Source of the DNA: Escherichia phage vB_EcoM_P8
Length of the DNA: 64,000 bases
Sequence record: PV390659.2
Direction: 5' to 3' (one strand)
Of this stretch, positions 507 through 51,996 are shown in pieces. The translations under genes and the position numbers were made by a program. Position 1 is the stretch's first letter. Every line of letters begins with the position of its first letter. The notes beneath the pieces were generated by a model. The model was not told where the DNA came from. It made no database searches and saw only the letters and a list, made by a program, of their open reading frames with translations.

Positions 507-1622
507 TTAAACTTCTCTAAATTCTTGCCCAAACACTTTACCAGTTTTAGACGATGCTTGCGTAGGAAGTACCATTATATCCGGAGGTGAAGCAGATTCA
601 CAGACATAATTAACTCGAATACCATTGACGCCAAATTCAGCAGGTTTTGAAATTCCGCCATTTCTTGATACTTCAGAAAAGCTTAAATTTCTCATGCCGC
701 CTTGACCAGCTTGAGCAGTTCTTTGTGCATATATTGTAAATCCTACTGCGTTTTCTGGAATAACTACATAATCTTCCTTTAATTCCCATGACCCAGCTTG
801 TCCAGTAAACTCAGCATGTGTTGAAGAAATATATCCATTCGATTCATCATAAAAACGGATAGATATATTTGTAGTTCCAAGCGCAAGTAAATCGGCATCA
901 GCATATAACTGTGCTTTAAGATAAAGAACATCGCCAGGAATTAAATTATAATCAGATAATTTACTTATCGCGGATGAAGTTGGTAAACGTGCAATTTCGT
1001 TATTAGTTCCACCAACCGCTGACATAAATTGCTCAACGCTTTCATATGTTCTTTTAGGAAATCCTGTAGCTCCAACGTCTTCTAAACTATCAAATACAAC
1101 ATCTAAAATAGTTTGATAATCATCTGTGCTTTTTCTATTGCTTAATTTAACATGTTCTAATGCAATAGCTCTTTTAGAAGAAGTGTAAAAAGCAGCATAT
1201 GATACGTCAAATCTTGACAATATAGAATCAGATGGAAAAGCAGACGTTCCTGTGGCTCTTAGCCAAGATACTACCTCAGGAGGAAAATTAACCTTTCCAC
1301 TAGTTAATATAGCAACAAGTCTATTATTCGTCAAAGAGTTCATGAAACCAACAAAAGCAGCTGATGTAGTATCATTTGAAGTCGAAAAAGCATATGACTT
1401 ACTATCAACTAATGCTCCTGTAGAAGGGTCAAAAACTCTTAAATGAAGACCTGTATTAAATGTTTGGCTTCCGATAGGATTATCCTGAAATTTGACATAT
1501 GGTCCTGCTGTAGAAAGCGGGCAAGAACCCGCTATGCTTATTTTATATCTTACTGAATTGCTTTCCGATAAAAATGGCGTTTGGACATATCCTTGTCCAA
1601 ACTCTGCCATAAATTTTTCCAT
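507..1622 (-). CDS. 35: Long tail fibre hinge connector gp35
   Basis: 371-aa ORF; length and position between gp34 and gp36 match T4 gp35 (~372 aa). Confidence 0.85.
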   Translation of the reverse strand: MEKFMAEFGQGYVQTPFLSESNSVRYKISIAGSCPLSTAGPYVKFQDNPIGSQTFNTGLHLRVFDPSTGALVDSKSYAFSTSNDTTSAAFVGFMNSLTNNRLVAILTSGKVNFPPEVVSWLRATGTSAFPSDSILSRFDVSYAAFYTSSKRAIALEHVKLSNRKSTDDYQTILDVVFDSLEDVGATGFPKRTYESVEQFMSAVGGTNNEIARLPTSSAISKLSDYNLIPGDVLYLKAQLYADADLLALGTTNISIRFYDESNGYISSTHAEFTGQAGSWELKEDYVVIPENAVGFTIYAQRTAQAGQGGMRNLSFSEVSRNGGISKPAEFGVNGIRVNYVCESASPPDIMVLPTQASSKTGKVFGQEFREV

Positions 1623-1630
1623 AATACCTC

Positions 1631-4600
1631 TTATTCAACCCATTCAAATTTAACCGTTTTATTCACTGGGTCAGGAATAATACGAACATTACCAATTCGT
1701 AAGAAATCACGAATAGTAAGATTCCCCATTATAGCATTATCAGATGGTAAAGCACCAATATCAGATGGCTGAGGAGGGTTACCCCCATCAAATACCTGAA
1801 CAAAACTTGACCAAGAGTTTTTAGTTTTCTGCCATGTACGCGTCCAGCGAGTGGTGCGCGCTTCTGGGGTCGTTGGATAAGTAATCCAATCTTGGTAAAG
1901 CGAATCGAGTGTGTTACCAAACTGAGTCAACGTACCAGGAGATTTAACCTCTTCGCCGCGTTCTAAGTATGGAAGACCAGTCACTTCATTAGTTTTTTCA
2001 ACCATCTTAAAATAACCCGGGAATTGGTTATAAGTGGCTGAATCATTAATATCGATTGACCAGAATCCTACAGTATCAGATGTTGGCGCACGAGTATATA
2101 AATCAGAGGTTTTAGTACCCTGAGAACGAATTCTCGAGTTGACAGTTAAACCACCTGAAGTTATAGTAGCACCTTTGGCAATGATTAAGCTTTCACCAAT
2201 TGTAACCTGACCAGATTGATTATTAATAGCTAAAGGACGTAATCCATTAAATCCACCAGTCTGATCGCCAGATGCAGTAAGCATAAAATAGGTGTTAGCA
2301 GCATCATTGCGAATAAAGAATCCATAATCACCGTTTATTGCTCTAAAAGCATTCGACGATTTACTGATAAATTCGCCATTAGCAGTAACTGAACTACCGA
2401 ATGTTGCAACGCCATTCGCATTCAATGTTCCTGAAGCATTCACATTTATCGGTGTTACTGTACCATTAATGCTAAATGCTATATTACCATCTTTATTGCG
2501 TTGAGAATAAAAGTGATAAGATGTGTCATCACTAACTTCAAATACAGTAGAACGTGTTGTATCTGACCCGCCACCAAACTGATTTCCCCAAACTGTGATA
2601 TTCATCGTCTGTGCTGGGTTAGTTCCAGTTTGAGGTCCTTTCTCAAAAATCAGACGAGTTGCTGTTCCAGTATTAGAAATAGTTAATGTGCTATTTGCCG
2701 AAACTGATCCACCAAACGTAGCAGTACTAGATGATACAAGAGGGGCACTCAGATTCGTTTGTTGGGTTAAGGTTAGTGAACCATTAACCGTTTGTGCAAT
2801 ATCCCTACGAATGAACTGAGATGAATCTAGACCATCCAGTAAATTACTATCTACGGCTTTTGCTTTTAACGGCAAATAATTTGCTAATACACGGTTTAAT
2901 TCATATGGCGATACTGCATAGCTATTTTTCTCGTACAATTCTAATGACTGCGTTGAACCAACTGTATCATTACCAACGAATGTAATTGAACCAGATGAAG
3001 TTTTAACAAAACCTCTTACCAGAGTAGTAGCTGCCCAAGTAGGTTCACTCTGCACAATCCATTTTAAATTTTTTGGAGATACAGCAGTATTTGCTGACGT
3101 TCCAGCTACAGTTTCAGACTGAGTTGCAACTTTAATAACGCCTTCCTGTGCTTCAGTAGATTTAGTACCTAAAAGCTTTTTAGGAGTTATTAAAACATTA
3201 TCTAATGTTCCTGCAGCAGCTTCAACTTGTGTAGCTACACGAAGTGTACCACGCTGAGTCTCATTTGCTTCAAGAATATTAAGGGTATAATGGTCCCAGA
3301 GAGTTCCTGATTCAACTAATCCAGATAGAGCAACAACAGAAGTACGATCAGTACTATTAAATCTGGTTTTAATTTTTAATGGTGTAGAGATACGAGTATC
3401 GTCGACGCCTGCGTCGAATTCAACTTGCGTAGCAATTTCAGCTATACCACTTAAACTTTCAGTTGCTTTACGGTCATTTAAAGTTTTAGGAGTGACTGCA
3501 CGGGTATAATCAGTTCCTGTATTAACTTCACTTTGCGTAGCAATTTCAATTAAACCAATTCTTCCATCAGTTGATGTCTTTTTATGTAACGTTTCTGGCG
3601 TTACAACCGCATTTGCCCATCCTTCTTGGCTTTGTCCAGCAATTACTTCACTTTCGACTGCTAGAATTACTGCACCTTGTTGCGTTGGAGTAGCTTTATA
3701 CTGATCCAAAGCTTTAGGCGAAACAACTAAATTATTAGTGTTTTTATTATAAACGTTTGTACCATTTAATTCACGACTAGAAGCTGGAGTAGCTCCTGCA
3801 GTAGATACAAAGGTTACAATACCAGATAATGACTCAGAACCTTGTCGAGCTTGAAGCTTTTTAGGAGTGATGATTGTAGTATCATCAGTACCTGTGTTAG
3901 TTTCTTGCTGCGTCGCAATTTCAGCAACACCTCTACGAGTTTCTGTGGCAGTTCTTTCATTCAGCTTTTTAGGAGTGACGATAATATCATCAGCAAAAGA
4001 GAATGTAGTATCCTGGTTCACTTGGGCAGTAGTTGCTATTCTTGCGATACCTCTACGAGTTTCTGTAGCAGTACGGTTAGCTAATGTTTCTGGTGTAATT
4101 GCTAATTCTTTTTGTGGAGAATTTTCTAAATCGACGTTAGCTTGAGCTTGTGTAGCTAAAGCAATTACGCCTAATCTTGCTCTAGTAGAATCATTTAAAG
4201 AATCAACTCTTTCAACTGTTGGCACGTTTTGCTGCACCACCCAGTATTTTTCATCAGAATCTTCTATATAAGCAAGCTGTAAAACTGGAACATAATTGGT
4301 TTCGCCGTTAAAAACTAATTCTTGAACAGTCACCCATTCAGCTTCAGGTGGATATTCTGAACGTTTTGGGAATTGCAGCAATTGAACTGAAGAAGCAATT
4401 TTATCTTCACCGGCAGCTTTGATTTTAACTGTTTGTCCTTTTCTCATATAATTCATGGAAATTTTAACAGTATCACCAATGGAAATATCGGTTGGAAGCT
4501 GAAGTTCAATTGTTTGGGTTGTTCCGTTATTCGCTCCAAATACCATAACTTCTTCATTTGGACGAATACTAGAATTAGTTGTTATAATACGTAAACGTGC

Positions 4601-5500: not shown

Positions 5501-5533
5501 TCTCCCGGCTCCTATTGTGTTTTCAATAATAAG

Positions 5534-5541
5534 TATTTATA
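5534..5541 (-). promoter_or_regulatory. Late promoter (TATAAATA) for gene 34
   Basis: - strand TATAAATA ~34 nt upstream of the gp34 ATG. Confidence 0.6.
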
Positions 5542-5544
5542 CTT

Positions 5545-5574
5545 GTTTACTTTAAGATTCGGATGGTATATAAT
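5545..5574 (+). promoter_or_regulatory. Early promoter for rnh
   Basis: GTTTAC (5545-5550), ~18-bp spacer, TATAAT (5569-5574); divergent from the gene 34 late promoter. Confidence 0.5.
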
Positions 5575-5603
5575 AGAAATCTCACTAATTGAACGAGGTT
5601 CAT

Positions 5604-6521
5604 ATGGATTTAGAAATGATGCTGGATGAAGATTACAAAGAAGGAATCTGCTTAATTGACTTTAGTCAAATTGCGCTTTCAACTGCTTTAGTAAACTTCC
5701 CAGATAAAGAAAAAATTAATTTATCAATGGTTCGTCATTTGATATTGAACTCAATTAAGTTTAATGTCAAAAAAGCAAAAACTCTTGGATACACTAAAAT
5801 TGTGTTGTGTATTGATAATGCGAAATCTGGATATTGGCGTCGTGATTTTGCTTATTATTATAAGAAAAACCGTGGAAAAGCACGAGAAGAATCTACTTGG
5901 GATTGGGAAGGTTATTTTGAATCCAGTCATAAAGTTATAGATGAATTGAAAGCTTATATGCCATACATTGTTATGGATATTGATAAGTATGAAGCAGATG
6001 ACCACATTGCTGTTCTTGTTAAAAAGTTCTCTTTAGAAGGACATAAAATTTTAATCATTTCATCGGATGGTGACTTTACTCAACTTCATAAGTATCCAAA
6101 TGTTAAGCAATGGTCACCGATGCATAAGAAATGGGTTAAAATTAAAAGCGGTTCTGCTGAAATTGACTGCATGACTAAAATCCTTAAAGGTGATAAAAAG
6201 GATAACGTCGCTTCAGTTAAAGTACGATCTGACTTTTGGTTTACCAGAGTTGAAGGCGAACGAACTCCTTCAATGAAAACATCTATTGTTGAAGCTATTG
6301 CTAATGACCGTGAGCAAGCTAAGGTGCTTCTCACTGAATCTGAATATAATCGATATAAAGAAAATTTAGTTCTAATTGATTTTGATTATATTCCTGATAA
6401 TATTGCTTCAAACATTGTGAATTACTATAATTCATATAAATTACCACCGCGTGGCAAAATTTATTCATATTTTGTAAAAGCGGGTCTTTCTAAATTAACT
6501 AATAGCATTAATGAATTTTGA
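5604..6521 (+). CDS. rnh: RNase H (5'-3' exonuclease / flap endonuclease)
   Basis: Translation from the internal Met (MDLEMMLDEDYKEG...) gives 305 aa, the T4 RNase H length; ORF-track start at 5589 is probably an upstream in-frame extension. Confidence 0.9.
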   Translation: MDLEMMLDEDYKEGICLIDFSQIALSTALVNFPDKEKINLSMVRHLILNSIKFNVKKAKTLGYTKIVLCIDNAKSGYWRRDFAYYYKKNRGKAREESTWDWEGYFESSHKVIDELKAYMPYIVMDIDKYEADDHIAVLVKKFSLEGHKILIISSDGDFTQLHKYPNVKQWSPMHKKWVKIKSGSAEIDCMTKILKGDKKDNVASVKVRSDFWFTRVEGERTPSMKTSIVEAIANDREQAKVLLTESEYNRYKENLVLIDFDYIPDNIASNIVNYYNSYKLPPRGKIYSYFVKAGLSKLTNSINEF

Positions 6522-6799: not shown

Positions 6800-7115
6800 T
6801 ATTCGTCCGGTCGATGAGACCGGTCTTTCAGAAAAAGAACTTTCAATTAAGAAAGAAAAGGATGAAATAGCAAAGCTTCTTGACCGCCAAGAAAATGGAT
6901 TTATTATTGAAAAAATGGTAGAAGAGTTTGGAATGAGTTATCTTGAAGCTACAACAGCATTCTTGGAAGAAAATTCTATTCCTGAAACTCAATTTGCTAA
7001 ATTTATTCCTTCGGGTATAATTGAAAAAATTCAGTCAGAAGCTATTGACGAAAATCTTTTACGTCCTTCTGTTGTTCGTTGTGAAAAAACTAATACATTA
7101 GATTTTCTACTATGA
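6777..7115 (+). CDS. 33: Late transcription accessory protein gp33
   Basis: From internal Met (MTQFSLNDIRPVDETG...) 112 aa, matching T4 gp33; overlaps dsbA 3' end. Confidence 0.85.
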   Translation: MTQFSLNDIRPVDETGLSEKELSIKKEKDEIAKLLDRQENGFIIEKMVEEFGMSYLEATTAFLEENSIPETQFAKFIPSGIIEKIQSEAIDENLLRPSVVRCEKTNTLDFLL

Positions 7116-7765
7116 TTAAACTCCGCATGCCTGCTGGTGGTGAAAGATACATTGATGGTAAATCAGTTTATAAATTATACTTAATGATAAAACAACATAT
7201 GAATGGAAAGTATGATGTAATTAAGTATAATTGGTGCATGCGGGTGTCTGATGCCGCTTATCAAAAGCGAAGGGATAAGTATTTTTTCCAGAAGTTATCA
7301 GAAAAATATAAATTAAAGGAACTTGCTTTAATCTTTATAAGCAATCTTGTTGCTAACCAAGATGCTTGGATTGGTGACATCTCTGACGCTGATGCACTTG
7401 TGTTTTATCGTGAATATATCGGACGCTTAAAGCAAATTAAATTTAAGTTTGAAGAAGATATTCGCAACATTTATTATTTTAGTAAAAAAGTTGAAGTTTC
7501 TGCTTTTAAAGAAATCTTTGAGTATAATCCAAAAGTTCAATCAAGTTATATTTTTAAACTACTTCAATCGAATATAATTTCGTTTGAGACGTTTATCTTG
7601 CTTGATTCGTTTTTAAATATAATCGATAAACATGATGAACAGACTGATAATTTAGTCTGGAATAATTATTCTATAAAGTTAAAGGCTTATAGAAAAATTT
7701 TAAATATTGATTCGCAGAAAGCTAAAAGTGTTTTCATTGAAACTGTGAAATCCTGCAAGTATTAA
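7112..7765 (+). CDS. 59: Helicase loader gp59
   Basis: 217 aa, MIKLRMPAGGERYIDGKSVYKLY...; length and position match T4 gp59. Confidence 0.85.
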   Translation: MIKLRMPAGGERYIDGKSVYKLYLMIKQHMNGKYDVIKYNWCMRVSDAAYQKRRDKYFFQKLSEKYKLKELALIFISNLVANQDAWIGDISDADALVFYREYIGRLKQIKFKFEEDIRNIYYFSKKVEVSAFKEIFEYNPKVQSSYIFKLLQSNIISFETFILLDSFLNIIDKHDEQTDNLVWNNYSIKLKAYRKILNIDSQKAKSVFIETVKSCKY

Positions 7766-7773
7766 TTGCTTAT

Positions 7774-7781
7774 TATAAATA
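7774..7781 (+). promoter_or_regulatory. Late-type promoter upstream of gene 32
   Basis: TATAAATA on + strand with an adjacent TATAAT; gene 32 is known to have several promoters. Confidence 0.45.
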
Positions 7782-7798
7782 GATTATAATTATCTCAC

Positions 7799-7864
7799 TG
7801 ACCAGCTATGAGGTCATACATCGTCATAGCACCAACTGTTAATTAAATTAAAAAGGAAATAAAA
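7799..7864 (+). promoter_or_regulatory. Gene 32 translational operator: pseudoknot plus unstructured A/U-rich leader
   Basis: Stem 1 TGACC(7799-7803)/GGTCA(7812-7816) and stem 2 GCTATGA(7805-7811)/TCATAGC(7824-7830) interlock as a pseudoknot, followed by AATTAAATTAAAAAGGAAATAAAA before the ATG. Confidence 0.7.
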
Positions 7865-8773
7865 ATGTTTAAACGTAAATCTACTGCTGAACTCGCTGCA
7901 CAAATGGCTAAACTGGCTGGAAATAAAGGTGGTTTTTCTTCTGAAGATAAAGGCGAGTGGAAACTGAAACTCGATAATGCGGGTAACGGTCAAGCAGTAA
8001 TTCGTTTTCTTCCGTCTAAAAATGATGAACAAGCACCATTCGCAATTCTTGTAAATCACGGTTTCAAGAAAAATGGTAAATGGTATATTGAAAACTGTTC
8101 ATCTACCCACGGTGATTACGATTCTTGCCCAGTATGTCAGTACATCAGTAAAAATGATTTGTACAACACTGACAATAAAGAGTATGGTCTTGTTAAACGT
8201 AAAACTTCTTACTGGGCTAACATTCTTGTTGTAAAAGACCCAGCTGCTCCAGAAAATGAAGGTAAAGTATTTAAATATCGTTTCGGTAAGAAAATCTGGG
8301 ATAAAATCAACGCAATGATTGCAGTTGATGTTGAAATGGGTGAAACCCCAGTTGATGTAACTTGTCCGTGGGAAGGTGCTAACTTTGTACTGAAAGTTAA
8401 ACAAGTTTCTGGTTTTAGTAACTACGACGAATCTAAATTCCTGAATCAATCTGCGATTCCAAACATTGATGATGAATCTTTCCAGAAAGAACTGTTCGAA
8501 CAAATGGTTGACCTTTCTGAAATGACTTCTAAAGATAAATTCAAATCGTTTGAAGAACTGAGCACTAAGTTCAGTCAAGTTATGGGAACTGCTGCTATGG
8601 GTGGTGCCGCTGCAACTGCCGCTAAGAAAGCTGATAAAGTTGCTGATGATTTGGATGCATTCAATGTTGATGACTTCAAAACAAAAACTGAAGATGATTT
8701 TATGAGCTCAAGCTCTGGCAGTTCATCTAGTGCTGATGACACGGACCTGGATGACCTTTTGAATGACCTTTAA
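7865..8773 (+). CDS. 32: Single-stranded DNA-binding protein gp32
   Basis: 302 codons; [17 protein letters not shown]... with acidic Ser/Asp-rich C-terminal tail; classic gp32. Confidence 0.95.
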
Positions 8774-10218: not shown

Positions 10219-11247
<1,029 letters not shown>

Positions 11248-11248
<1 letters not shown>

Positions 11249-12108
11249 TGAAACAATACCAATTTTTAATTAAAGATATCCTGGAAAATGGTTACGAAAC
11301 CGATGACCGAACAGGCACAGGAACAATTGCTTTGTTTGGTACTAAATTACGCTGGGATTTAACTAAAGGTTTTCCTGCGGTAACAACTAAAAAATTAGCA
11401 TGGAAAGCCTGTATTGCTGAGCTAATATGGTTTTTATCGGGAAGCACAAATGTCAATGATTTGCGATTAATTCAACATGATTCATTAATTCAAGGCAAAA
11501 CAGTCTGGGATGAAAATTACGAAAATCAAGCAAAAGATTTAGGATACCATAGCGGTGAACTTGGTCCAATTTATGGAAAACAGTGGCGCGATTTTGGTGG
11601 CGTAGATCAAATTATAGAAGTTGTTGAACGTATTAAAAAACTGCCAAATGATAGACGTCAAATTGTTTCAGCATGGAATCCGGCAGAACTTAAGCAAATG
11701 GCATTACCGCCTTGTCATATGTTCTATCAGTTTAATGTGCGTAATGGCTATTTGGATCTGCAGTGGTATCAACGTTCGGTAGATGTTTTCCTCGGTCTTC
11801 CATTTAATATTGCATCATATGCTACGTTAGTTCATATTGTAGCTAAGATGTGTAATCTTATTCCAGGAGATTTGATATTTTCTGGTGGTAATACTCATAT
11901 CTATATGAATCACGTAGAACAATGTAAAGAAATTTTGCGTCGTGAACCTATGGATTTATGCGAATTACAATTAAAATTTCCAGATGAATTTGATGAATGG
12001 GACACAGAATCGCAGGTATTTTGGTTGAGTCAATTCGCAAAGCCGCATAATTTTGTTCTTAACAACTATGTATCTCACCCTCCTATTAAAGGAAAAATGG
12101 CGGTGTAA
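11248..12108 (+). CDS. td: Thymidylate synthase, uninterrupted (no group I intron)
   Basis: 286 aa from MKQYQFLIKD...; continuous ORF through the region where T4 td carries its intron; active-site PCH motif present. Confidence 0.9.
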
Positions 12109-12395: not shown

Positions 12396-12675
12396 ATATA
12401 AATCCGACTTTGATGTTAATATTCACCGTGGTACATTTTGGGGAAATTACGTCGGTAAAGATGCTGGCAGCCGGGAGGCTGCCATTGAATTATTCAAAAA
12501 AGATTTTATACGTCGAATTAAATCCGGAGAAATAACTAAAGCACATTTAGAGCCTTTACGTGGAATGAGGCTAGGATGCACATGTAAACCAAAGCCGTGT
12601 CATGGTGATATAATAGCTCATATAGTTAACCGATTGTTTAAAGACGATTTTCAAGTTGAGGACTTATGCAATTAA
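12349..12675 (+). CDS. Hypothetical protein with Cys/His motif (nrdA.1-like position)
   Basis: 108-aa ORF containing [12 protein letters not shown]; true start may be downstream of 12349; overlaps previous ORF in another frame. Confidence 0.4.
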
Positions 12676-14930
12676 TTAATGTTATCAAAAGTAGTGGTGT
12701 TTCTCAGAGCTTTGACCCGCAAAAAATTATTAAAGTTTTATCTTGGGCAGCTGAAGGAACATCTGTAGATCCTTATGAATTATATGAAAATATTAAATCA
12801 TATCTCCGTGATGGAATGACAACTGATGACATTCAGACTATTGTCATTAAGGCTGCTGCGAATTCTATTTCAGTTGAAGAGCCTGATTATCAATATGTAG
12901 CTGCACGCTGTTTAATGTTCGCTCTTCGTAAGCATGTTTACGGGCAATATGAGCCCCGTTCATTTATTGATCACATTTCTTACTGTGTAAATGAAGGTAA
13001 ATACGACCCTGAATTGTTATCAAAATATTCTGCAGAAGAAATTACATTTTTAGAATCAAAAATTAAGCACGAGCGGGATATGGAATTTACTTATTCCGGG
13101 GCGATGCAATTAAAAGAAAAATATCTAGTTAAAGATAAAACCACTGGTCAAATTTATGAAACTCCGCAGTTTGCATTTATGACTATTGGAATGGCATTGC
13201 ATCAAGATGAACCTGTTGATAGATTAAAACATGTTATTCGTTTTTATGAAGCAGTATCTACTCGACAGATTTCATTACCAACTCCTATTATGGCTGGTTG
13301 CCGTACTCCAACTCGGCAGTTTAGTTCATGCGTTGTTATTGAGGCAGGTGATTCGCTGAAGTCTATCAATAAGGCTTCCGCTTCAATTGTTGAATATATC
13401 TCCAAACGAGCTGGAATCGGCATTAACGTTGGTATGATTCGTGCCGAAGGTTCTAAGATTGGCACAGGTGAAGTGCGTCATACTGGTGTTATTCCTTTTT
13501 GGAAACATTTTCAGACTGCTGTTAAATCATGTTCACAGGGCGGAATTCGTGGCGGCGCTGCTACTGCTTATTATCCTATTTGGCATTTGGAAGTTGAAAA
13601 TCTTCTCGTTTTGAAAAATAACAAAGGCGTAGAAGAAAACCGTATCCGTCATATGGATTATGGTGTTCAGCTGAATGACCTAATGATGGAACGATTCGGA
13701 AAGAACGATTACATTACTTTGTTTAGTCCGCATGAAATGGGTGGCGAACTTTATTATTCTTATTTTAAAGACCAAGACCGCTTCCGTGAATTGTACGAAG
13801 CTGCAGAAAAAGACCCTAATATTCGTAAAAAGCGTATTAAAGCTCGTGAACTATTTGAATTGCTCATGACTGAACGTTCAGGAACAGCAAGGATTTATGT
13901 ACAGTTCATTGATAATACGAATAACTATACTCCATTTATTCGTGAAAAGGCACCTATTCGCCAGAGTAACTTGTGTTGTGAAATTGCTATTCCAACAAAT
14001 GATGTGAATAGTCCTGATGCCGAAATTGGATTGTGTACGTTATCTGCATTTGTGTTAGATAACTTCGATTGGCAAGACCAAGATAAAATTAATGAATTAG
14101 CAGAAGTTCAAGTTCGTGCTCTTGATAATCTTTTGGATTACCAAGGATATCCAGTTCCTGAAGCAGAAAAAGCTAAAAAGCGTCGAAATCTTGGTGTAGG
14201 TGTTACTAACTATGCAGCTTGGCTGGCAAGTAATTTTGCTTCTTATGAAGATGCTAACGATTTAACACATGAACTATTTGAGAGATTACAGTATGGACTC
14301 ATTAAAGCATCCATTAAACTCGCCAAAGAAAAAGGACCTTGCGAATATTATTCAGACACTCGTTGGTCTCGAGGCGAATTACCTATCGACTGGTACAATA
14401 AAAAGATTGACCAAATCGCAGCTCCAAAATACGTTTGTGACTGGTCGTCGCTGCGGGAAGACCTTAAGCTCTTTGGCATCCGTAATAGCACATTATCAGC
14501 ACTTATGCCATGTGAGTCATCTTCCCAAGTTTCTAACAGTACAAACGGTATCGAGCCTCCACGTGGACCAGTCTCTGTTAAAGAGTCAAAAGAGGGTTCC
14601 TTTAATCAAGTCGTGCCCAATATTGAGCATAACATAGACTTATATGATTATACGTGGAAATTAGCTAAGAAAGGTAATAAACCTTATCTTACACAGGTAG
14701 CTATTATGCTTAAATGGGTGTGTCAATCAGCTTCAGCGAATACATATTATGACCCGCAGATTTTTCCAAAAGGAAAGGTTCCAATGTCTGTGATGATTGA
14801 TGACCTTTTGTACTTTTGGTATTTTGGCGGAAAAAATTTCTATTATCATAATACCCGCGATGGTTCTGGTACTGATGATTATGAAATAGAAACTCCAAAA
14901 GCTGAAGATTGTTCATCCTGTAAATTATGA
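12666..14930 (+). CDS. nrdA: Ribonucleotide reductase large subunit (aerobic class Ia)
   Basis: 754 aa, equals T4 NrdA length; N-terminal ATP-cone and RNR catalytic-region motifs. Confidence 0.95.
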   Translation: MQLINVIKSSGVSQSFDPQKIIKVLSWAAEGTSVDPYELYENIKSYLRDGMTTDDIQTIVIKAAANSISVEEPDYQYVAARCLMFALRKHVYGQYEPRSFIDHISYCVNEGKYDPELLSKYSAEEITFLESKIKHERDMEFTYSGAMQLKEKYLVKDKTTGQIYETPQFAFMTIGMALHQDEPVDRLKHVIRFYEAVSTRQISLPTPIMAGCRTPTRQFSSCVVIEAGDSLKSINKASASIVEYISKRAGIGINVGMIRAEGSKIGTGEVRHTGVIPFWKHFQTAVKSCSQGGIRGGAATAYYPIWHLEVENLLVLKNNKGVEENRIRHMDYGVQLNDLMMERFGKNDYITLFSPHEMGGELYYSYFKDQDRFRELYEAAEKDPNIRKKRIKARELFELLMTERSGTARIYVQFIDNTNNYTPFIREKAPIRQSNLCCEIAIPTNDVNSPDAEIGLCTLSAFVLDNFDWQDQDKINELAEVQVRALDNLLDYQGYPVPEAEKAKKRRNLGVGVTNYAAWLASNFASYEDANDLTHELFERLQYGLIKASIKLAKEKGPCEYYSDTRWSRGELPIDWYNKKIDQIAAPKYVCDWSSLREDLKLFGIRNSTLSALMPCESSSQVSNSTNGIEPPRGPVSVKESKEGSFNQVVPNIEHNIDLYDYTWKLAKKGNKPYLTQVAIMLKWVCQSASANTYYDPQIFPKGKVPMSVMIDDLLYFWYFGGKNFYYHNTRDGSGTDDYEIETPKAEDCSSCKL

Positions 14931-14981
14931 TATAATTTGACTCACGGACGAGTCACTATCTATTAACTAAGCGGAAAATTT

Positions 14982-16160
14982 ATGAGCACAGTTTTTAATA
15001 CAAATCCAGTTGATGTTTTAAAAGAACCTATGTTCTTCGGTTCAGGTCTTGGTATTGCGCGTTATGATATTCAACGTCATAAAGTTTTTGAAGATTTAAC
15101 CGAAAAGCAGTTGTCATTTTTCTGGCGTCCTGAAGAAGTAAACTTGATGATGGATGCTGCACAATTTAACAAGCTTCCTCAGTATCAGCAAGATATTTTT
15201 ACTAATAACCTGAAGTATCAATCACTTTTGGATAGCATTCAGGGTCGTGCACCGTCTGCTGTACTTATGTCGTTAATTTCAGACCCAAGTCTTGATACAT
15301 GGGTTGCTACATGGACTTTTAGTGAAACTATTCACAGTCGTTCATATACTCATATCATGCGAAATCTTTATACTGATCCATCAAAGGTATTTGATGAGAT
15401 TGTATTAGATGAAGATATTATGAAACGTGCTGAGTCCATTGGTCGTTATTACGATGATGTTCTCAATAAGACCCGTGAATGGGAAAATGCTAAAGAATTT
15501 GTAGAACTAGCTAAAGAATCTCCTGATGCTGATTTTCGTTTAAATCGAGCTATTAAACAAGAAGCCGAAGCTAAACGAGCACTAATGAAATCTCTTTATC
15601 TTTGCCTTCATGTAATCAACGCATTGGAAGCTATTCGTTTTTACGTATCTTTCGCATGTACCTTTAACTTCCATAAAAACATGGAAATCATGGAAGGTAA
15701 TGCTAAGATTATGAAGTTTATTGCGCGTGATGAGCAACTTCATCTTAAAGGCACTCAATATATTATTCGTCAACTTCAACTTGGCACTGACGGTGATGAA
15801 TGGGTTAAAATTGCTCAAGAGTGTGAACAAGAAGCAGTTGATATTTTCATGGAAGTTAACCGTCAAGAAAAAGACTGGGCAGTTCATTTATTTAAAGATG
15901 GCGATGTTCCTGGATTAAATACAAATAGCATGTGGAGCTTTATTGATTACTTAACTGTATCTCGTATGAAACAGTGCGGTCTTCCATGCCCAATTACCGA
16001 TGCTCCGGTTAAACATCCATATCCTTGGATTCGTGAATACCTTAATTCTGATAATGTTCAATCCGCGCCGCAAGAAGTAGAACTGTCATCTTACCTTGTT
16101 GCACAGATTGATAATGATGTTGATGATAAAGTTATGATGAGTTTTAAAAAATATTTTTAA
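14982..16160 (+). CDS. nrdB: Ribonucleotide reductase small subunit, uninterrupted (no intron)
   Basis: 392-aa continuous ORF with di-iron ligand motifs (e.g. ETIHSRSY); no intervening intron or endonuclease ORF. Confidence 0.95.
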   Translation: MSTVFNTNPVDVLKEPMFFGSGLGIARYDIQRHKVFEDLTEKQLSFFWRPEEVNLMMDAAQFNKLPQYQQDIFTNNLKYQSLLDSIQGRAPSAVLMSLISDPSLDTWVATWTFSETIHSRSYTHIMRNLYTDPSKVFDEIVLDEDIMKRAESIGRYYDDVLNKTREWENAKEFVELAKESPDADFRLNRAIKQEAEAKRALMKSLYLCLHVINALEAIRFYVSFACTFNFHKNMEIMEGNAKIMKFIARDEQLHLKGTQYIIRQLQLGTDGDEWVKIAQECEQEAVDIFMEVNRQEKDWAVHLFKDGDVPGLNTNSMWSFIDYLTVSRMKQCGLPCPITDAPVKHPYPWIREYLNSDNVQSAPQEVELSSYLVAQIDNDVDDKVMMSFKKYF

Positions 16161-16164
16161 GGAG

Positions 16165-16186
16165 TGGGCCGCAAGGCCCATTTTAT
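16165..16186 (+). terminator. Hairpin after nrdB (terminator and/or split-SD structure for denA)
   Basis: TGGGCC-GCAA-GGCCCA followed by TTTTATT; lies between SD GGAG (16161-16164) and the denA ATG (16188). Confidence 0.45.
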
Positions 16187-16187
16187 T

Positions 16188-17775
<1,588 letters not shown>

Positions 17776-24026: not shown

Positions 24027-24203
24027 ATGGCAAAACAAGCTAAAGCAAAGAAAGCAGTTGAAAAGAAAGTTGGTGATTCTAAACGCGCTGGTTACAAGCG
24101 TGGGTCGAACTCTCGTATCAATCAAACTGTTGAGAAGATCATGCGCCGAGCACGTGCGGTTCTTCGAGATGATGCTTCTCGTTTTGGTAAGCAGAAAGCA
24201 TAA
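24027..24203 (+). CDS. Hypothetical small basic protein (30.9-like position)
   Basis: 58 aa from MAKQAKAKKAVEKK...; followed by a strong terminator. Confidence 0.45.
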   Translation: MAKQAKAKKAVEKKVGDSKRAGYKRGSNSRINQTVEKIMRRARAVLRDDASRFGKQKA

Positions 24204-24208
24204 GTTGA

Positions 24209-24236
24209 GGACTCCTTCGGGAGTCCTTTTTTATTT
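24209..24236 (+). terminator. Intrinsic terminator
   Basis: GGACTCC-TTCG-GGAGTCC (UUCG tetraloop) followed by TTTTTTATTTT. Confidence 0.65.
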
Positions 24237-24256
24237 TCCAAAGATTACACAAAGTT

Positions 24257-29086: not shown

Positions 29087-31180
29087 ATGGAACTTATTAC
29101 AGAATTATTTGACGAAGATACTACTCTTCCAATTACAAACTTAAATCCAAAGAAGAAAATACCGCAAATTTTTTCAGTTCATGTTGATGACGCAATTGAA
29201 CAACCAGGCTTTCGTTTATGTACCTATACATCTGGAGGTGATACTAATCGCGATTTAAAAATGGGCGATAAAATGATGCATATTGTTCCTTTTACATTAA
29301 CTGCTAAAGGTTCAATTGCTAAATTAAAAGGTCTCGGTCCAAGCCCAATTAATTACATTAATTCAGTTTTTACTGTTGCAATGCAGACGATGCGTCAGTA
29401 TAAAATTGATGCCTGCATGCTCCGTATTCTTAAGTCTAAAACTGCTGGTCAAGCTCGACAAATTCAAGTTATTGCTGATAGACTTATCCGTAGTCGTTCG
29501 GGTGGCAGATACGTCCTTCTTAAAGAACTCTGGGATTACGATAAAAAGTATGCATATATTCTTATACATCGCAAAAATGTATCACTAGAAGACATTCCAG
29601 GAGTTCCGGAAATTAGTACCGAGCTCTTTACTAAAGTTGAATCGAAAGTCGGCGATGTTTATATCAATAAAGATACTGGAGCTCAAGTAACTAAAAATGA
29701 GGCAATTGCAGCATCTATTGCACAAGAAAATGATAAACGTTCTGACCAAGCTGTTATTGTTAAAGTTAAAATTTCCCGTAGAGCAATTGCGCAAAGTCAA
29801 TCATTAGAATCTTCTAGATTTGAAAGCGAATTATTCCAGAAGTATGAATCTACTGCAGCTAATTTCAATAAACCTGCTACAGCTCCTTTAATTCCCGAAG
29901 CAGAAGAAATGAAGCTTGGAATTAATTCATTAGCTTCTAAAACTAAGGCAGCAAAAATTATTGCCGAAGGAACCGCAGATGAACTTCATTATGACTATAA
30001 ATTCTTTTCAAAAAGTGAGGTTAATGAAGTTTCTGAAAAAATTAAAGATGTAATTCTTAATGCGATTAAAAATGAACCGACTACTTCAATAAAATGTTTA
30101 GAGAAATACGCAGCAGCTGTTAATCAATTATTTGAAGAATATAAAGATAATTGGCTTGATAAACATAATAAAACCCGTAAAGGACAGCCAGATGAAGTCT
30201 GGGAAGAAATGACTAAAAATTCCTGGAACGCAGCAAAAACTAAATTCCTCAAAAGAATGATTTACAGCTTTTCTGGAATTGGTGCAGGTCCAATGATTGA
30301 TATTACTATTGCCCGTGATGGTTCTAAATATACTCCATCACAAAAGCGCGGCATTAGAGAGTATTGTGGTTCAGGATATACTGACATCAATAATCTTCTT
30401 TTGGGTCGTTACAATCCAGAACGATATGATGTAATGAGTGAAAAAGAAATTGAATCTGCTATAAATAACTTAGATTCAGCTTTTGAAAACGGTGACCGTA
30501 TACCAGAAGGCATTACAGTTTATCGTGCTCAAAGCATGACTGCTCCTATATACGAAGCACTAGTTAAAAATAAAGTGTTCTATTTCAGAAATTTTGTATC
30601 TACTTCTTTAACTCCTATCATTTTTGGACGTTTTGGAATTACACATGCTGGTATTGGTCTTTTAGAACCAGAAGCTCGTAACGAATTGACAGTTGATAAA
30701 AATGAAGAAGGAATAACTATTAATCCAAACGAAATAAGAGCGTATAAAGAAAATCCTGAATACGTTAAAGTTCAAATAGGATGGGCAATTGATGGAGCTC
30801 ATAAAGTTAATGTTGTATATCCAGGAAGTCTCGGAATAGCAACAGAAGCTGAAGTAATTCTACCACGCGGATTGATGGTCAAAGTTAATAAAATAACTGA
30901 TGCTTCTAATAATGATGGAACAACATCTAATAATACAAAACTCATTCAAGCTGAAGTTATGACTACGGAAGAACTCACCGAATCAGTCATTTATGACGGT
31001 GACCGTCTAATGGAAACTGGTGAAGTAGTTGCAATGACAGGTGATATTGAAATAGAAGACAGAGTTGACTTTGCATCATTTGTTTCATCAAATGTTAAAC
31101 AAAAAGTAGAATCATCTCTTGGAATTATTGCATCTTGCATAGATATTGCAAACATGCCTTACAAGTTCGTTCAAGGATAA
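29087..31180 (+). CDS. alt: ADP-ribosyltransferase Alt (virion-packaged)
   Basis: 697 aa from MELITELFD...; ART-type motifs (YRAQ, NFVSTSLT, EAEVILPRG); late-type TATAAATA upstream. Confidence 0.8.
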   Translation: MELITELFDEDTTLPITNLNPKKKIPQIFSVHVDDAIEQPGFRLCTYTSGGDTNRDLKMGDKMMHIVPFTLTAKGSIAKLKGLGPSPINYINSVFTVAMQTMRQYKIDACMLRILKSKTAGQARQIQVIADRLIRSRSGGRYVLLKELWDYDKKYAYILIHRKNVSLEDIPGVPEISTELFTKVESKVGDVYINKDTGAQVTKNEAIAASIAQENDKRSDQAVIVKVKISRRAIAQSQSLESSRFESELFQKYESTAANFNKPATAPLIPEAEEMKLGINSLASKTKAAKIIAEGTADELHYDYKFFSKSEVNEVSEKIKDVILNAIKNEPTTSIKCLEKYAAAVNQLFEEYKDNWLDKHNKTRKGQPDEVWEEMTKNSWNAAKTKFLKRMIYSFSGIGAGPMIDITIARDGSKYTPSQKRGIREYCGSGYTDINNLLLGRYNPERYDVMSEKEIESAINNLDSAFENGDRIPEGITVYRAQSMTAPIYEALVKNKVFYFRNFVSTSLTPIIFGRFGITHAGIGLLEPEARNELTVDKNEEGITINPNEIRAYKENPEYVKVQIGWAIDGAHKVNVVYPGSLGIATEAEVILPRGLMVKVNKITDASNNDGTTSNNTKLIQAEVMTTEELTESVIYDGDRLMETGEVVAMTGDIEIEDRVDFASFVSSNVKQKVESSLGIIASCIDIANMPYKFVQG

Positions 31181-31183
31181 ATC

Positions 31184-33241
31184 ATGGAACTTATTACAGA
31201 ATTATTTGACGGCGCTTCGGCGCCGGTTGTTAACTTAAATCCCAAGCATAAAATACCTCAAATTTTTGCTATTCAAGCCGGTGAAGAAAGCGTGCTTCCT
31301 GGATTTAGATTTTGTACATACACCTCTGGCGGTGATACAAATAAAAACGTTAAGCCAGGCGATAAAATGATGCATATCGTAATGATAGGTGTCAATGAAA
31401 AGCTATCATTAGTTAAACTTAAAAACTTAGGTGGAAATCCAATTGGTGTCATTAATGCGGTTTTTGATACTGCTCTTCAAACAATGAAACAGTATAAAAT
31501 TGACGCATGCCTGTTCCGCGTACTAAAGAGTAAAACAAACGGTGCAGCTCGTCAAATGCAAGTTATTGCCGACCGTTTAGTACGTACCAAAGGAGCAGGT
31601 CGATATGTTCTTTTAAAGGAAATCTGGGACTATGATAAAAAGTATGCATATATTATGGTTTACCGTAAAAATGCTAATTTAGAAGACATTCCAGGTGTAC
31701 CTCCTATTTCAACTGAGTTATTCACAAAAGTTGAATCAAAGGTTGGTGATGTTTATGTAGACGTTAAAACAGGTAATGCTGTTCATAAAGCTGTCGCTGT
31801 TGCTGCTTCTATTGCCTTAGAAAATGATAAGCGCACGGATCAAGCTGTTATTCAGAAAACTAAAATTAGTCGTCGATTAGCAGCACAAGCTCAATACTCT
31901 ACTGTCGATGCTTCACTTCAGGGTGATAGCTTCGCTGCTAAGAAATATCAAGAGTTTGAATCTAAAGTTCCGGTATATAAAGCAGAAGGACCAATGAACT
32001 CCGGCGTTATTCAGGTTGGTTCAAACTTCAGCAAAGGAGCTATCGGTGGTATGAGAAGTGCTTCTCGTTTTAAATCTAATGATTATGAACTAGAAAGCTT
32101 CCGAAATCATATTGCATTGGCTCATGCACGTTTACGTGATCCATCTATCAAGCTGCAGAGCGATATAACATATCAAGGTTCTCAAGAATATTTAAAGAAT
32201 AAAGAATTTTTTGATTATAAAACTGATAAAATTTTAAGCGATCTCGCTGACATTAATATTTCTAATAGCTTTGATGTTATTAAGAAAATTATCAATGATT
32301 TAGTTAAAGGTTCTAAAGCCACGCCAGACGAAAAGGTAGCTATTGTTCAATTTGTCATGAATGGCATTTATAAATTGATTAATGAGTCTGCTTCTCAAGC
32401 GTATGAATATGCAAGTACTGAAGTACCCCCAAAAGGATTAACTCAGGCTGAGTCTGATGTAATTGAAGATTATTGCGCGGATTCATATGTTGAAATGAAC
32501 TCGTTCCTTTTAGGTAAACCGGATTCTACTCGTGAAGAATATATGGAACGAGCTATTAAACACATCGAGACGATGGATTCTGCTTTTGCCAAAGGATCAG
32601 TTCTTCCTCCAGGAACTACGCTTTACCGTGGCCAAGAAGTTACCTTTAAAACTTTACGTCATAATATTGAAAATAAAATGTTCTATTTTAAGAACTTCGT
32701 ATCCACATCGCTTAAACCAAATATCTTCGGTGAGTATGGTAAAAACTATATGGCTCTAGATGATTCCAGCGCAGTATTTTCTGGTGAAGGAGAAGGTTCT
32801 GTTGACGCAGAAGATTTGATGCATATGGGCAGTCACTCTGCTTATGCGAATGAAGATGCTGAAACTAGCGTAGGTATGGTAATAAAAGGAGCTGAGCGAA
32901 TCAAAGTTATCGTTCCGGGTCATTTATCAGGATTTCCGTCAGAAGCTGAAGTTATTTTACCACGTGGAATTTTGCTGAAGATTAATAAAGTGAGCACGTA
33001 CATGATGAAAGAAACTGCTTATAACAAGTATTTAATCGAAGGTACAATCGTTCCTCCTTCTGAACAATTAGAAGAATCGGTATATGATGGCGATCATCTG
33101 ATGGAAACTGGTGAAGTTCGTCCAATGGCTGGATTTAATCAATTCCTTGTAGAAGAATCAAAAGAAGAGGAAAACGAAGTTTCTCAAATCTTGGCTTCTT
33201 TGGTTAACATCAACGGAATGTCTAAAAAGTTCAAGATGTAG
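31184..33241 (+). CDS. Alt-like ADP-ribosyltransferase paralogue
   Basis: 685 aa; N-terminus MELITELFD... and C-terminal catalytic region (YRGQ, NFVSTSLK, EAEVILPRG) align with the upstream alt; central region diverged. Confidence 0.75.
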   Translation: MELITELFDGASAPVVNLNPKHKIPQIFAIQAGEESVLPGFRFCTYTSGGDTNKNVKPGDKMMHIVMIGVNEKLSLVKLKNLGGNPIGVINAVFDTALQTMKQYKIDACLFRVLKSKTNGAARQMQVIADRLVRTKGAGRYVLLKEIWDYDKKYAYIMVYRKNANLEDIPGVPPISTELFTKVESKVGDVYVDVKTGNAVHKAVAVAASIALENDKRTDQAVIQKTKISRRLAAQAQYSTVDASLQGDSFAAKKYQEFESKVPVYKAEGPMNSGVIQVGSNFSKGAIGGMRSASRFKSNDYELESFRNHIALAHARLRDPSIKLQSDITYQGSQEYLKNKEFFDYKTDKILSDLADINISNSFDVIKKIINDLVKGSKATPDEKVAIVQFVMNGIYKLINESASQAYEYASTEVPPKGLTQAESDVIEDYCADSYVEMNSFLLGKPDSTREEYMERAIKHIETMDSAFAKGSVLPPGTTLYRGQEVTFKTLRHNIENKMFYFKNFVSTSLKPNIFGEYGKNYMALDDSSAVFSGEGEGSVDAEDLMHMGSHSAYANEDAETSVGMVIKGAERIKVIVPGHLSGFPSEAEVILPRGILLKINKVSTYMMKETAYNKYLIEGTIVPPSEQLEESVYDGDHLMETGEVRPMAGFNQFLVEESKEEENEVSQILASLVNINGMSKKFKM

Positions 33242-37991: not shown

Positions 37992-39111
37992 TTTTAACCT
38001 TAACTGGATCTATTGTTTCCAGTTTCGTTGCATTAGTGAACATATATAGATGAGTTACTGAATTATTATTGGATAATTCATGGATGACTTCATCAACGTA
38101 AAATTCTGTTTTAAATTGGTTTTTACTATCATTAAAAATAATTTTAACGCCAGGGGTTAAGTTAAAATTACCGACAGTAGAACATTTAGCATAGCCATCG
38201 TATTGCGCCATAGTTTGAAGACGAATAGCTTCTTCATATCCATTCCTATAAGTCATTTCAGAATAAGCACCTGACCTTGACACTACAATAGAGTTTTCGC
38301 CCTTTCCTGTAGTAATCATTGGCAATGAAGAATCTAAAAATGAATGCGCATAGATAGTAGCGTTTTTCATTGGGTCACGTTTGTGAGGATTTGATTTAGT
38401 CAACCAAACGAAATCATATGCTAATGGATATTTTAATTCTTGGATAAATTGACCTATTAAAGATGGCTCACCGACAATCATCGGATACGGTTCTTGATTT
38501 ATCATCATATCATAGTCCATCATGTTAACTCCCATGATGTCTTGCCACACAAATACAAATTTGTCACTTCCTACAGCTAGAGCAACTTCTCTGACATATG
38601 ACAAATAGTTTTCAAATGTACTAGTCCACGGAATATCAGGAACATAAGCATTTATAGCATTTATTGCTGGAGTTAATAACGTGCGATCCTGATAAATGAC
38701 ACCAAGCATTTCCTTTATAGATTCACCTGCATCAGAGAAAAACGGTCTGCCAAATTTAAGATTTTCTATAGAATGAATAGTTCCCAATTCAATAGCAATG
38801 ATGTTATCACCCTTTGAATCTACTGACACGGAAAAATGCTTACATCCATAAATTCTTGTTTTAACATTATTAATATCGTTTGCATTAGCTACAGAAATCT
38901 GAATTATTTCATTTCCATCCATTTTTGTATGGATGTTTTTAGAATCATAAAACTGCAGCATTCCTTCATTTCGGCCATAAAGAGAATCCCGCATAGTTAA
39001 TGTGGTAATAGTAGCAGCTAATTCAACAAATCTATTATTACTCCAAGCGTCATAGCTATCAAATAATTTAACGCTGAGATTTGGATATCCTGGGCGTTGC
39101 AACATACTCAT
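37936..39111 (-). CDS. 27: Baseplate hub subunit gp27
   Basis: 391 aa, equal to T4 gp27. Confidence 0.85.
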
Positions 39112-39860
39112 TATTGTTTATCCTTCTCAATCAGTTTTAATACGAATCCGCGCTCAGCAGGAATCATTTTCATTATTGAATTTAAGCTATAATTACTTTT
39201 TACAAGCGTGTGATTAATTTGATAAAAAGTAAATATTTCATCTGGGTTAACTAATAGCTTAAACACATCTACTATATCAGTGTATTTTTTTACATACTTG
39301 TCACAACAGGACATGTGTAGCGTTAAATTAATAGGATTCATTGCATCAAGAATTTTTTCTAATGTTTCTATCTCGATTGCATCAACAAGTTCTATTTGAC
39401 TTGATTCGCTAATTTCCTTCCAATCATACCATGTTTCATCTACTTGAACAGAATGAATATTTTCAGTAATCATCTTTGCTTTATTTTCATAAAACTCAGA
39501 AGGAAACTTTAATTTAATTTTAACATTAGCTACATCAAAAACAGGTTCCTTTAATTCTTTTTGATATATTTCAAATGGAACTGTCTTTTCTTTTTTACAT
39601 TTTGGACATACAAATGTGACCGGTACTTTAGTTTTACCTATTGACCCTACAAATACCTGCAAAAATATAAATGGTTGCCAAGTCTTCGGATAGTCTCCAA
39701 AATAATCAGCAATTAAATCAGCAATTATTTCTTTTTGTTCTTGTGGTGACCGATGTTCTATATCGTTTCGAACTAACAAAAAATCTCGATAATCTTCTAC
39801 CGTAAATGGTTTAAAACGATGAACACCATCTGGTAATTTACAACGAATAATGTTTGCCAT
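39111..39860 (-). CDS. 51: Baseplate hub assembly protein gp51
   Basis: 249 aa, equal to T4 gp51; divergent from gene 26. Confidence 0.8.
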
Positions 39861-39878
39861 AGATGCTCCTTTTATTCT

Positions 39879-39890
39879 ATTTATAAATAT
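39879..39890. promoter_or_regulatory. Overlapping divergent late promoters for genes 51 (-) and 26 (+)
   Basis: Palindromic TATTTATAAATA: TATAAATA on + (39883-39890) and on - (39879-39886) in the 50-bp divergent gap. Confidence 0.55.
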
Positions 39891-39910
39891 GATAAATAAA
39901 GGAGCTAAAT

Positions 39911-40537
39911 ATGTATGAATACAAATTTGATGTGAGAGTTGGTTCTAAAATAATCAACTGTCGCGCATTTACTCTTAAAGAATATCTAGAACTTATTACT
40001 GCTAAAAAGAACGGTTCAGTAGAAGAGATCGTTAAAAAGCTAATCAAAGACTGTACAAATGCAAAAGATTTAAACCGCCAAGAATCAGAACTACTATTGA
40101 TTCATTTATGGGCACATTCTCTTGGAGAAGTTAATCACGAAAACTCCTGGAAGTGCACCTGCGGAACTGAAATACCAACCCATATAAATCTATTACATAC
40201 ACAAATAGATGCACCAGAAGACCTCTGGTATACACTGGGTGACATTAAAATTAAGTTCCATTACCCTAAAATTTTTGATGATAAAAACATAGCCCACATG
40301 ATAGTATCATGTATAGAAACAATTCATGCTAACGGTGAAAGCATTCCAATTGAAGACTTGAATGAAAAAGAGTTGGAAGATTTATATTCTATCATCACAG
40401 AGTCAGATATTGTAGCTATAAAAGATATGCTTTTAAAGCCTACTGTTTATTTGGCTGTTCCAATTAAGTGTCCAGAGTGTGGAAAAACTCACGCTCATGT
40501 AATAAGAGGACTCAAAGAATTCTTTGAGCTATTGTAA
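39911..40537 (+). CDS. 26: Baseplate hub subunit gp26
   Basis: 208 aa, equal to T4 gp26. Confidence 0.8.
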
Positions 40538-51571: not shown

Positions 51572-51996
51572 TAGCTTAATCCTAATGCTTTACGGCGTTT
51601 AAGAGCTTTTTTACGCTTACGCTGAGCACGAGATTGACCTGCTGGATTGGCAATCTTCGTTTTGGTAGCTTTGCGAGCAATTTGTCTACGTTTTGCTTTA
51701 GACAGTCCGGTGGTTTGAAATGCATTACGTTCACGCGTCTTGCGGTCTTTAGTACGTGTAATTTCACCACGAGCAGAAACATGTTTAACGATGAATTCAT
51801 TTAGCGGCATATCTTCATTAATAGAAGCTAATGCAATTGCTAAATCAGTTTCATCATCAAGCATATTCTCGACAATTGTATTTATATCGTCTTTATTTAA
51901 AGCAGAAGACAATTCGTCAAAGCGACCCTGTGCTTCAGGAATAAGTGCTTCGACATTCTCGAGAACTAATTCATGAGTTTCAGGGATCAGAAGCAT
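51571..51996 (-). CDS. 68: Prohead core protein gp68
   Basis: 141 aa; basic C-terminus; synteny. Confidence 0.7.

Follow-up and report, generated by a model that had tools for sequence, protein, structure and literature searches.

The nrdB gene of Escherichia phage vB_EcoM_P8 (sequence record PV390659.2) is almost certainly an ordinary intron-less Tequatrovirus allele. In the stretch analysed here (64,000 nucleotides, one strand, the whole referred to below as the window) the gene is one continuous reading frame, and the position at which T4 carries its nrdB intron is empty. We describe the gene and its surroundings, the site itself, how common this state is among related phages, and what the allele would mean for the homing endonucleases that act on nrdB.

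The nrdB gene and its neighborhood

The gene order in the window is that of the T-even phages: frd, an ORF of 68 aa, td, nrdA.2, nrdA.1, nrdA, a spacer, nrdB, a hairpin and denA, followed downstream by rnlA, alc, pseT.3 to pseT.1 and pseT. The features closest to nrdB are these:

11248..12108, + strand: td (thymidylate synthase), uninterrupted (Pfam PF00303, E 5.7e-94)
12666..14930, + strand: nrdA, large subunit of ribonucleotide reductase (RNR) (Pfam ATP-cone, Ribonuc_red_lgN and Ribonuc_red_lgC, E 2.4e-135)
14931..14981, + strand: nrdA-nrdB spacer of 51 bp without mobE or nrdB.1, from the sequence; the T2 spacing is equal
14982..16160, + strand: nrdB, class Ia RNR beta subunit, a single ORF of 392 codons with an ATG start and a TAA stop
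16161..16184, + strand: GC-rich hairpin directly 3' of the nrdB stop (-16.4 kcal/mol, z -4.0)
16188..16598, + strand: denA, endonuclease II with a GIY-YIG fold (Pfam GIY-YIG, E 5.4e-06; PHROG 1111 endonuclease, E 1.8e-65)

A profile search matched the nrdB product to the Pfam family PF00268 Ribonuc_red_sm with 126.5 bits (cut-off 33.6, E 1.7e-36), and phmmer against the PDB found E. coli R2 (E 5.5e-126, residues 3-388); for an ORF of 392 codons with such family scores, chance as an origin is far exceeded. The reference iron ligands of E. coli R2 are D84, E115, H118, E204, E238 and H241, and its radical tyrosine is Tyr122. Aligned to it, the phage product has all the di-iron ligands (D84, E115, H118, E216, E251 and H254), keeps the radical tyrosine Tyr122, and has in its C-terminal SSYLVAQID a Tyr371 that aligns to E. 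coli Y356. The partner gene nrdA lies 51 bp upstream. The gene encodes a complete beta subunit that looks fully functional.

The hairpin behind nrdB was matched in stability by none of 200 shuffles in a fold test, and probably serves to terminate transcription or to stabilise the RNA. It consists of GGAGUGGGCC GCAA GGCCCAUUUU, overlaps an alternative GTG start of denA and has an identical sequence in T4. A small hairpin inside the spacer (14938-14955) is weak (z -1.16), and a scan of promoter and terminator consensus sequences gave counts not above those of shuffles. The gene denA is a normal T-even gene in the same position as in T4, and no homing endonuclease insertion. The 68-aa ORF (11042-11248) overlaps both frd and td by a few bases and matches PHROG 9550, of unknown function (E 1.3e-45). 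T4 lacks it, its frd and td overlapping directly, and T2 has a different ORF of 115 aa between the two genes.

The intron site is empty

The T4 record (NC_000866) gives nrdB as a CDS in two segments that flank an I-TevIII ORF, with mobE and nrdB.1 standing between nrdA and nrdB. Exon 1 has 664 nt and ends in ...TTTGCGT, exon 2 has 503 nt and starts with GTACC, and the group I intron between them has 598 nt (AAAATGCGCC...CGAACATACG). The I-TevIII ORF that it holds is truncated, a defunct deletion derivative of which the intact version is found in RB3-type phages. When the window gene was compared with the T4 locus by blastn, the match broke into nt 1-674 and nt 677-1179, separated by 600 bases in the T4 subject (1442 to 2043). 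This split, together with the exon alignment, places the T4 intron site at the boundary T15657/G15658, across which the window reads ...TTCGCAT and then GTACC... with no insertion:

15657..15658, + strand: empty intron insertion site, T/GT of codon Cys226 (FYVSFAC/TF), from the T4 exon/intron boundaries and the alignments

The window protein and spliced T4 NrdB align end-to-end with 94% identity, the gaps being confined to one variable loop. A first-pass annotation, made from the sequence, had described nrdB as uninterrupted, had stated that T4 nrdB carries a group I intron with I-TevIII and had proposed an alignment to the T4 exons as a check. That alignment bears out the description: a single ORF is colinear with exon 1 plus exon 2, and the statement on T4 holds too, with the detail that its I-TevIII ORF is truncated. 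As regards expression, nrdB would be translated directly off the nrdA-nrdB message, and RNA splicing would be unneeded. For the annotation of this genome, nrdB requires no join.

Search for intron and endonuclease sequences in the window

Rfam at the gathering threshold was uninformative, as it left both the window and the T4 control locus blank. With the Intron_gpI model the T4 nrdB intron scores 35.7 bits (T4 locus 5509-5749) and the td intron 40.3 bits (10596-10826); default Rfam annotation misses both because these scores lie below the 50-bit gathering cut-off. A permissive E-value scan, in which the positive control recovered both T4 introns with those scores, found no match to Intron_gpI at E<=1 in the whole 64-kb window. 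Two weak sub-threshold matches to other families, Atu_C8 (24159-24242, 31.4 bits, E 0.024) and Ocean-VII (51974-51994, 21.6 bits, E 0.062), are most likely due to chance. Across the 64 kb, tblastn with full-length I-TevIII from phage ECO07P3 gave at best E 0.26 over 53 aa, T4 MobE and NrdB.1 gave short chance matches only, and blastn with the intron DNA (the 1091-nt and 598-nt versions) gave at best 24 nt (E 0.03 to 0.06).

Two observations come from the annotation of phage BMB16, which is identical to the window over the stretches compared (see below). Genes 32 and 59 (window ~7100-7900; BMB16 30241-31902) are separated by about 100 bp in which no gene is annotated, at the place where T4 has segG. 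Over the portion of that record equivalent to window 1-39000, the annotation shows no homing endonuclease. Going by this annotation, and being without mobE, I-TevI and I-TevIII as well, the region appears poor in endonucleases.

The td and nrdD genes

The td gene of the window is colinear with exon 1 of T4 td as far as nt 549 (...GGT) and then runs straight on with exon 2, leaving the td intron site at 11796/11797 empty. The last of the three genes that have an intron in T4, nrdD, is located outside the window. For it we turned to Escherichia phage vB_EcoM_BMB16 (PV102577.1, Tequatrovirus), which is 100% identical to the window over 14600-16700 and 40001-64000 (the next-best record for 14600-16700 is 98.2% identical); its record annotates nrdB as a single CDS of 1179 bp, and nrdD as a single CDS of 1818 bp with nrdG directly after it. 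The suggestion in the first-pass annotation that td is intron-less, and that with nrdB it belongs to an intron-free set of alleles, is upheld for these two genes by the window sequence itself and for nrdD by the BMB16 annotation.

When the two identical regions were mapped on the linear BMB16 record, their positions departed by 49 bp from a simple wrap-around (window ~39000-40000), perhaps owing to a terminal repeat or to another permutation of the record. Near its C terminus (aa ~237-275; window ~11950-12070), td is wholly unlike T4 in both DNA and protein, yet the overall length of 286 aa is kept, as are the last ~20 aa. Like the patch in nrdB described below, this one varies within a gene, and it lies on the 3' side of the empty td intron site.

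Frequency of the intron-less state

In record counts that include duplicates and laboratory variants and hence give only rough proportions, 982 of the 1159 phage-collection records hit by a 100-bp probe with the site at its middle were uninterrupted (at least 80% coverage in one piece), the T4 intron was present at 80% coverage or more in about 118 phage records, and the nrdA-nrdB junction was uninterrupted in 617 of 1018 matching records, with genes like mobE, Hef or MobB occupying it in others. In T4, RB3 and phages of their kind, the site-centred probe finds a match only from position 51, i.e., exactly from the insertion site. An nrdB gene free of intron and mobE is clearly the majority state.

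This state is already known in T-even phages and nothing about it is new in the window. Reportedly, Quirk et al. in 1989 found T2H and T2L isolates that lacked all three introns. The nrdB intron interrupts the gene in T4 and is absent from T2 (PMC2790892), and its variable presence among T-even phages, with T2 and T6 intron-less, goes back to 1987, to judge from the entry for Pedersen-Lane and Belfort in the reference list of PMC2988022. The significance of the finding is accordingly low, the variability of the nrdB intron being textbook material.

A hypervariable cassette inside nrdB

The one mildly unusual feature of the gene is the variable loop that interrupts its alignment with T4:

15492..15581, + strand: hypervariable NrdB cassette of ~90 bp, RB3/ECO07P3 type (nrdB nt ~511-600, aa ~171-200)

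A multiple alignment of ten T-even-type nrdB sequences contains at least six mutually unalignable versions of this cassette, indels included, between flanks that are 90-100% identical among the same ten sequences. The type found in the window occurs in only 199 records, compared with 1159 for the adjoining 100 bp. It is present together with the intron (RB3, HY03 and PD112) and also in intron-less phages, and the cassette type therefore does not depend on whether an intron is present. Its counterpart in E. coli R2 is residues ~170-188, which we take to be a surface beta-hairpin. The simplest explanation is a tolerant surface loop that is swapped by recombination. The cassette may deserve a separate study at the population level.

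The allele as a probable homing target

The nrdB gene is attacked by three homing endonucleases: I-TevIII, MobE and Hef. Targets of the first two can be located in the window from published work:

15072..15141, + strand: MobE target region, nrdB nt 91-160, 70/70 nt identical to T2
15641..15644, no strand assigned: I-TevIII cleavage region, with C at -14 (15644) in the window; positions from PMC1865063

T2 nrdB is nicked by T4 MobE on its non-coding strand at nt 122-126, and this nick drives mobE into the progeny and, in trans, the defunct intron as well (PMC2790892). These positions, as mapped in T2, correspond to window 15103-15107, and by sequence identity the MobE-sensitive T2 sequence is present intact in the window as a predicted target. 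T4 differs at ~20 of the 70 positions of nt 91-160; it must be immune to its own MobE.

For I-TevIII the mapped cleavage positions are -14/-16 (PMC1865063). Between -35 and +20, the window differs from the substrate that was tested, an intron-deleted T4 gene, at -35, -32, -14, -5, -2 and +20, and all six differences are synonymous. The window has C at -14 (15644), which adjoins the scissile bond, C at -5 (15653) and A at -2 (15656). IME340, the closest relative, is also intron-less and has C at both -14 and -5, for which reason we take these two bases as real polymorphisms and no errors. The exact 100-bp allele was found in the phage collection in BMB16 only; in IMG/VR the window homing-site allele had 0 matches and a degenerate version of it 4 loci, a sample too small for allele frequencies.

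The nrdB gene of the window is best read as an ordinary homing site that stands unoccupied, without nrdB intron, I-TevIII and mobE, and with its T2-identical MobE nick site it looks like a typical recipient allele. If a relative carrying mobE or I-TevIII infected the same cell, the gene would be predicted to be on the receiving side of gene conversion. The phage would then be predicted to come off worse in marker exclusion around nrdB against co-infecting T4-like phages with mobE or RB3-like phages with I-TevIII.

Alternative explanations and history of the allele

The base at -14 invites a different thought, namely that the synonymous changes at -14, -5 and -2 lower the binding or cleavage by I-TevIII, so that the site is immunised against homing and the gene stays intron-free. 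The C next to the mapped cleavage positions, the restriction of the exact 100-bp allele to BMB16 with none in IMG/VR, and the intron-less IME340 sharing -14C and -5C would all agree with it. However, I-TevIII and its relatives have extended footprints that tolerate sequence changes (PMC1865063, PMC2988022), many intron-less phages have -5C, and the changes are without exception at third-codon positions, as expected of neutral drift. Moreover, window-like alleles do get invaded, since ECO07P3, with a gene 95.7% identical and the same cassette, carries an intron of 1091 nt. We therefore give little credence to a resistant site. Scarcely more probable is the idea that the cassette, in a gene already known as the target of three homing endonucleases, is under diversifying selection or endonuclease-driven target diversification, or, in a related version, that -14C/-5C/-2A forms a naturally resistant I-TevIII site. 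An unoccupied site of the usual kind is still the reading that we prefer.

T4, RB3 and ECO07P3 share one synonymous haplotype in the last ~60 nt of exon 1, from which the window differs at 14 of 61 positions, all synonymous. We considered reading this flank as an intron-specific co-conversion tract, meaning that the window gene was never invaded, and rejected it: probing with the 100-mer of the spliced T4 junction detected the flank, with one mismatch, in many intron-less phages. In the intron-less GEP001, the sole mismatch is an A at -2. Occurring in intron-less phages too, the flank haplotype alone is no guide to the history. Position -2 alone tracked the presence of the intron in every allele read, with G in the four intron-bearing ones (T4, RB3, ECO07P3 and the mini-intron of PD112), A in the intron-less window, T2, QL01, GEP001 and three IMG/VR contigs, and C in IME340. 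A requirement for G at -2 in the P1 pairing (GCGU with GCGC near the 5' end of the intron) would fit this distribution.

That the window gene, rather than never having been invaded, lost an intron precisely, through recombination with either spliced cDNA or a relative lacking the intron, is a proposal that we judge unlikely. The intron-associated flank in intron-less phages such as GEP001 suggests that loss or back-conversion probably happens in the phage population, and the window nrdB is indeed a mosaic with a T2-like 5' end and an RB3-like cassette. After precise loss through cDNA one would expect to find G at -2 and the flank of the donor, but the window has A at -2 and the 14 differences in the flank, and the exact spliced T4 100-mer was present in no uninterrupted record of the phage collection. 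As judged from its sequence, there is no trace of recent precise intron loss in the window allele; an older loss or back-conversion may nevertheless have taken place. Much further down in probability, and hardly to be entertained, is an artefact of assembly or annotation in the source record. Nothing specific speaks for it, other than that the ends of the linear BMB16 record, with its wrap-around offset, must have been handled somehow. The junction lies midway in a continuous, in-frame and conserved ORF, the same uninterrupted junction recurs in hundreds of independent genomes, and the removal of an intron with base precision and preservation of the frame is beyond any assembler. No observation speaks against the intron-less reading, and the ordinary intron-less allele is the account that we retain in the comparisons that follow.

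Comparison with known systems

The cellular counterpart, E. coli NrdB (R2; e.g., PDB 1PIY and 1RIB), resembles the phage protein over nearly its full length, and the iron ligands, Tyr122 and the equivalent of Tyr356 are common to both. The phage protein differs in having a longer hypervariable loop at E. coli residues ~170-188 and an insertion of 2 residues near 340.

Among the phages, T4 has exons that are colinear with the window gene, exon 2 being 96% identical in DNA, and the same downstream hairpin and denA. Its product has 388 aa against 392 aa in the window, a difference that is due to the cassette. The architecture of T2 (AP018813) matches that of the window: a continuous td of 861 bp, a spacer of 51 bp between nrdA and nrdB, a continuous nrdB of 1179 bp, and denA. 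In sequence, however, the T2 and window nrdB genes are 91.3% identical overall, and 67 of their 103 differences are in nt 481-630, within which T2 has a cassette of another type that cannot be aligned to that of the window. T2 also has T at -14 and -5 where the window has C. The label of T2-type given in the first-pass annotation consequently holds for the architecture, as supported by AP018813 and the literature, but does not extend to the central cassette, which is like that of RB3 and ECO07P3.

The same intron site is occupied in other phages by versions of different sizes. PD112 (Escherichia phage vB_vPM_PD112, locus 65-368), CE1, SP21535 and BYEP01 have a mini nrdB intron of 304 nt without an ORF, shorter than the 598-nt version of T4 and the 1091-nt version of RB3. 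In the PD112 record nrdB appears as two partial CDSs, annotated separately, and in ECO07P3 (locus 883-3152) the two exons are annotated as "hypothetical proteins."

RB3 and ECO07P3 share with the window the cassette type and the length of the (spliced) product, 392 aa, and differ in carrying, at T/GT, the 1091-nt intron with a full-length, active I-TevIII, of which the window has none. ECO07P3 has no mobE, and the 95.7% identity given above refers to its spliced nrdB. Its intron flank is like that of T4 and RB3 and the rest of the gene like that of the window, a pattern consistent with homing of the intron into a window-like gene accompanied by co-conversion of the flank.
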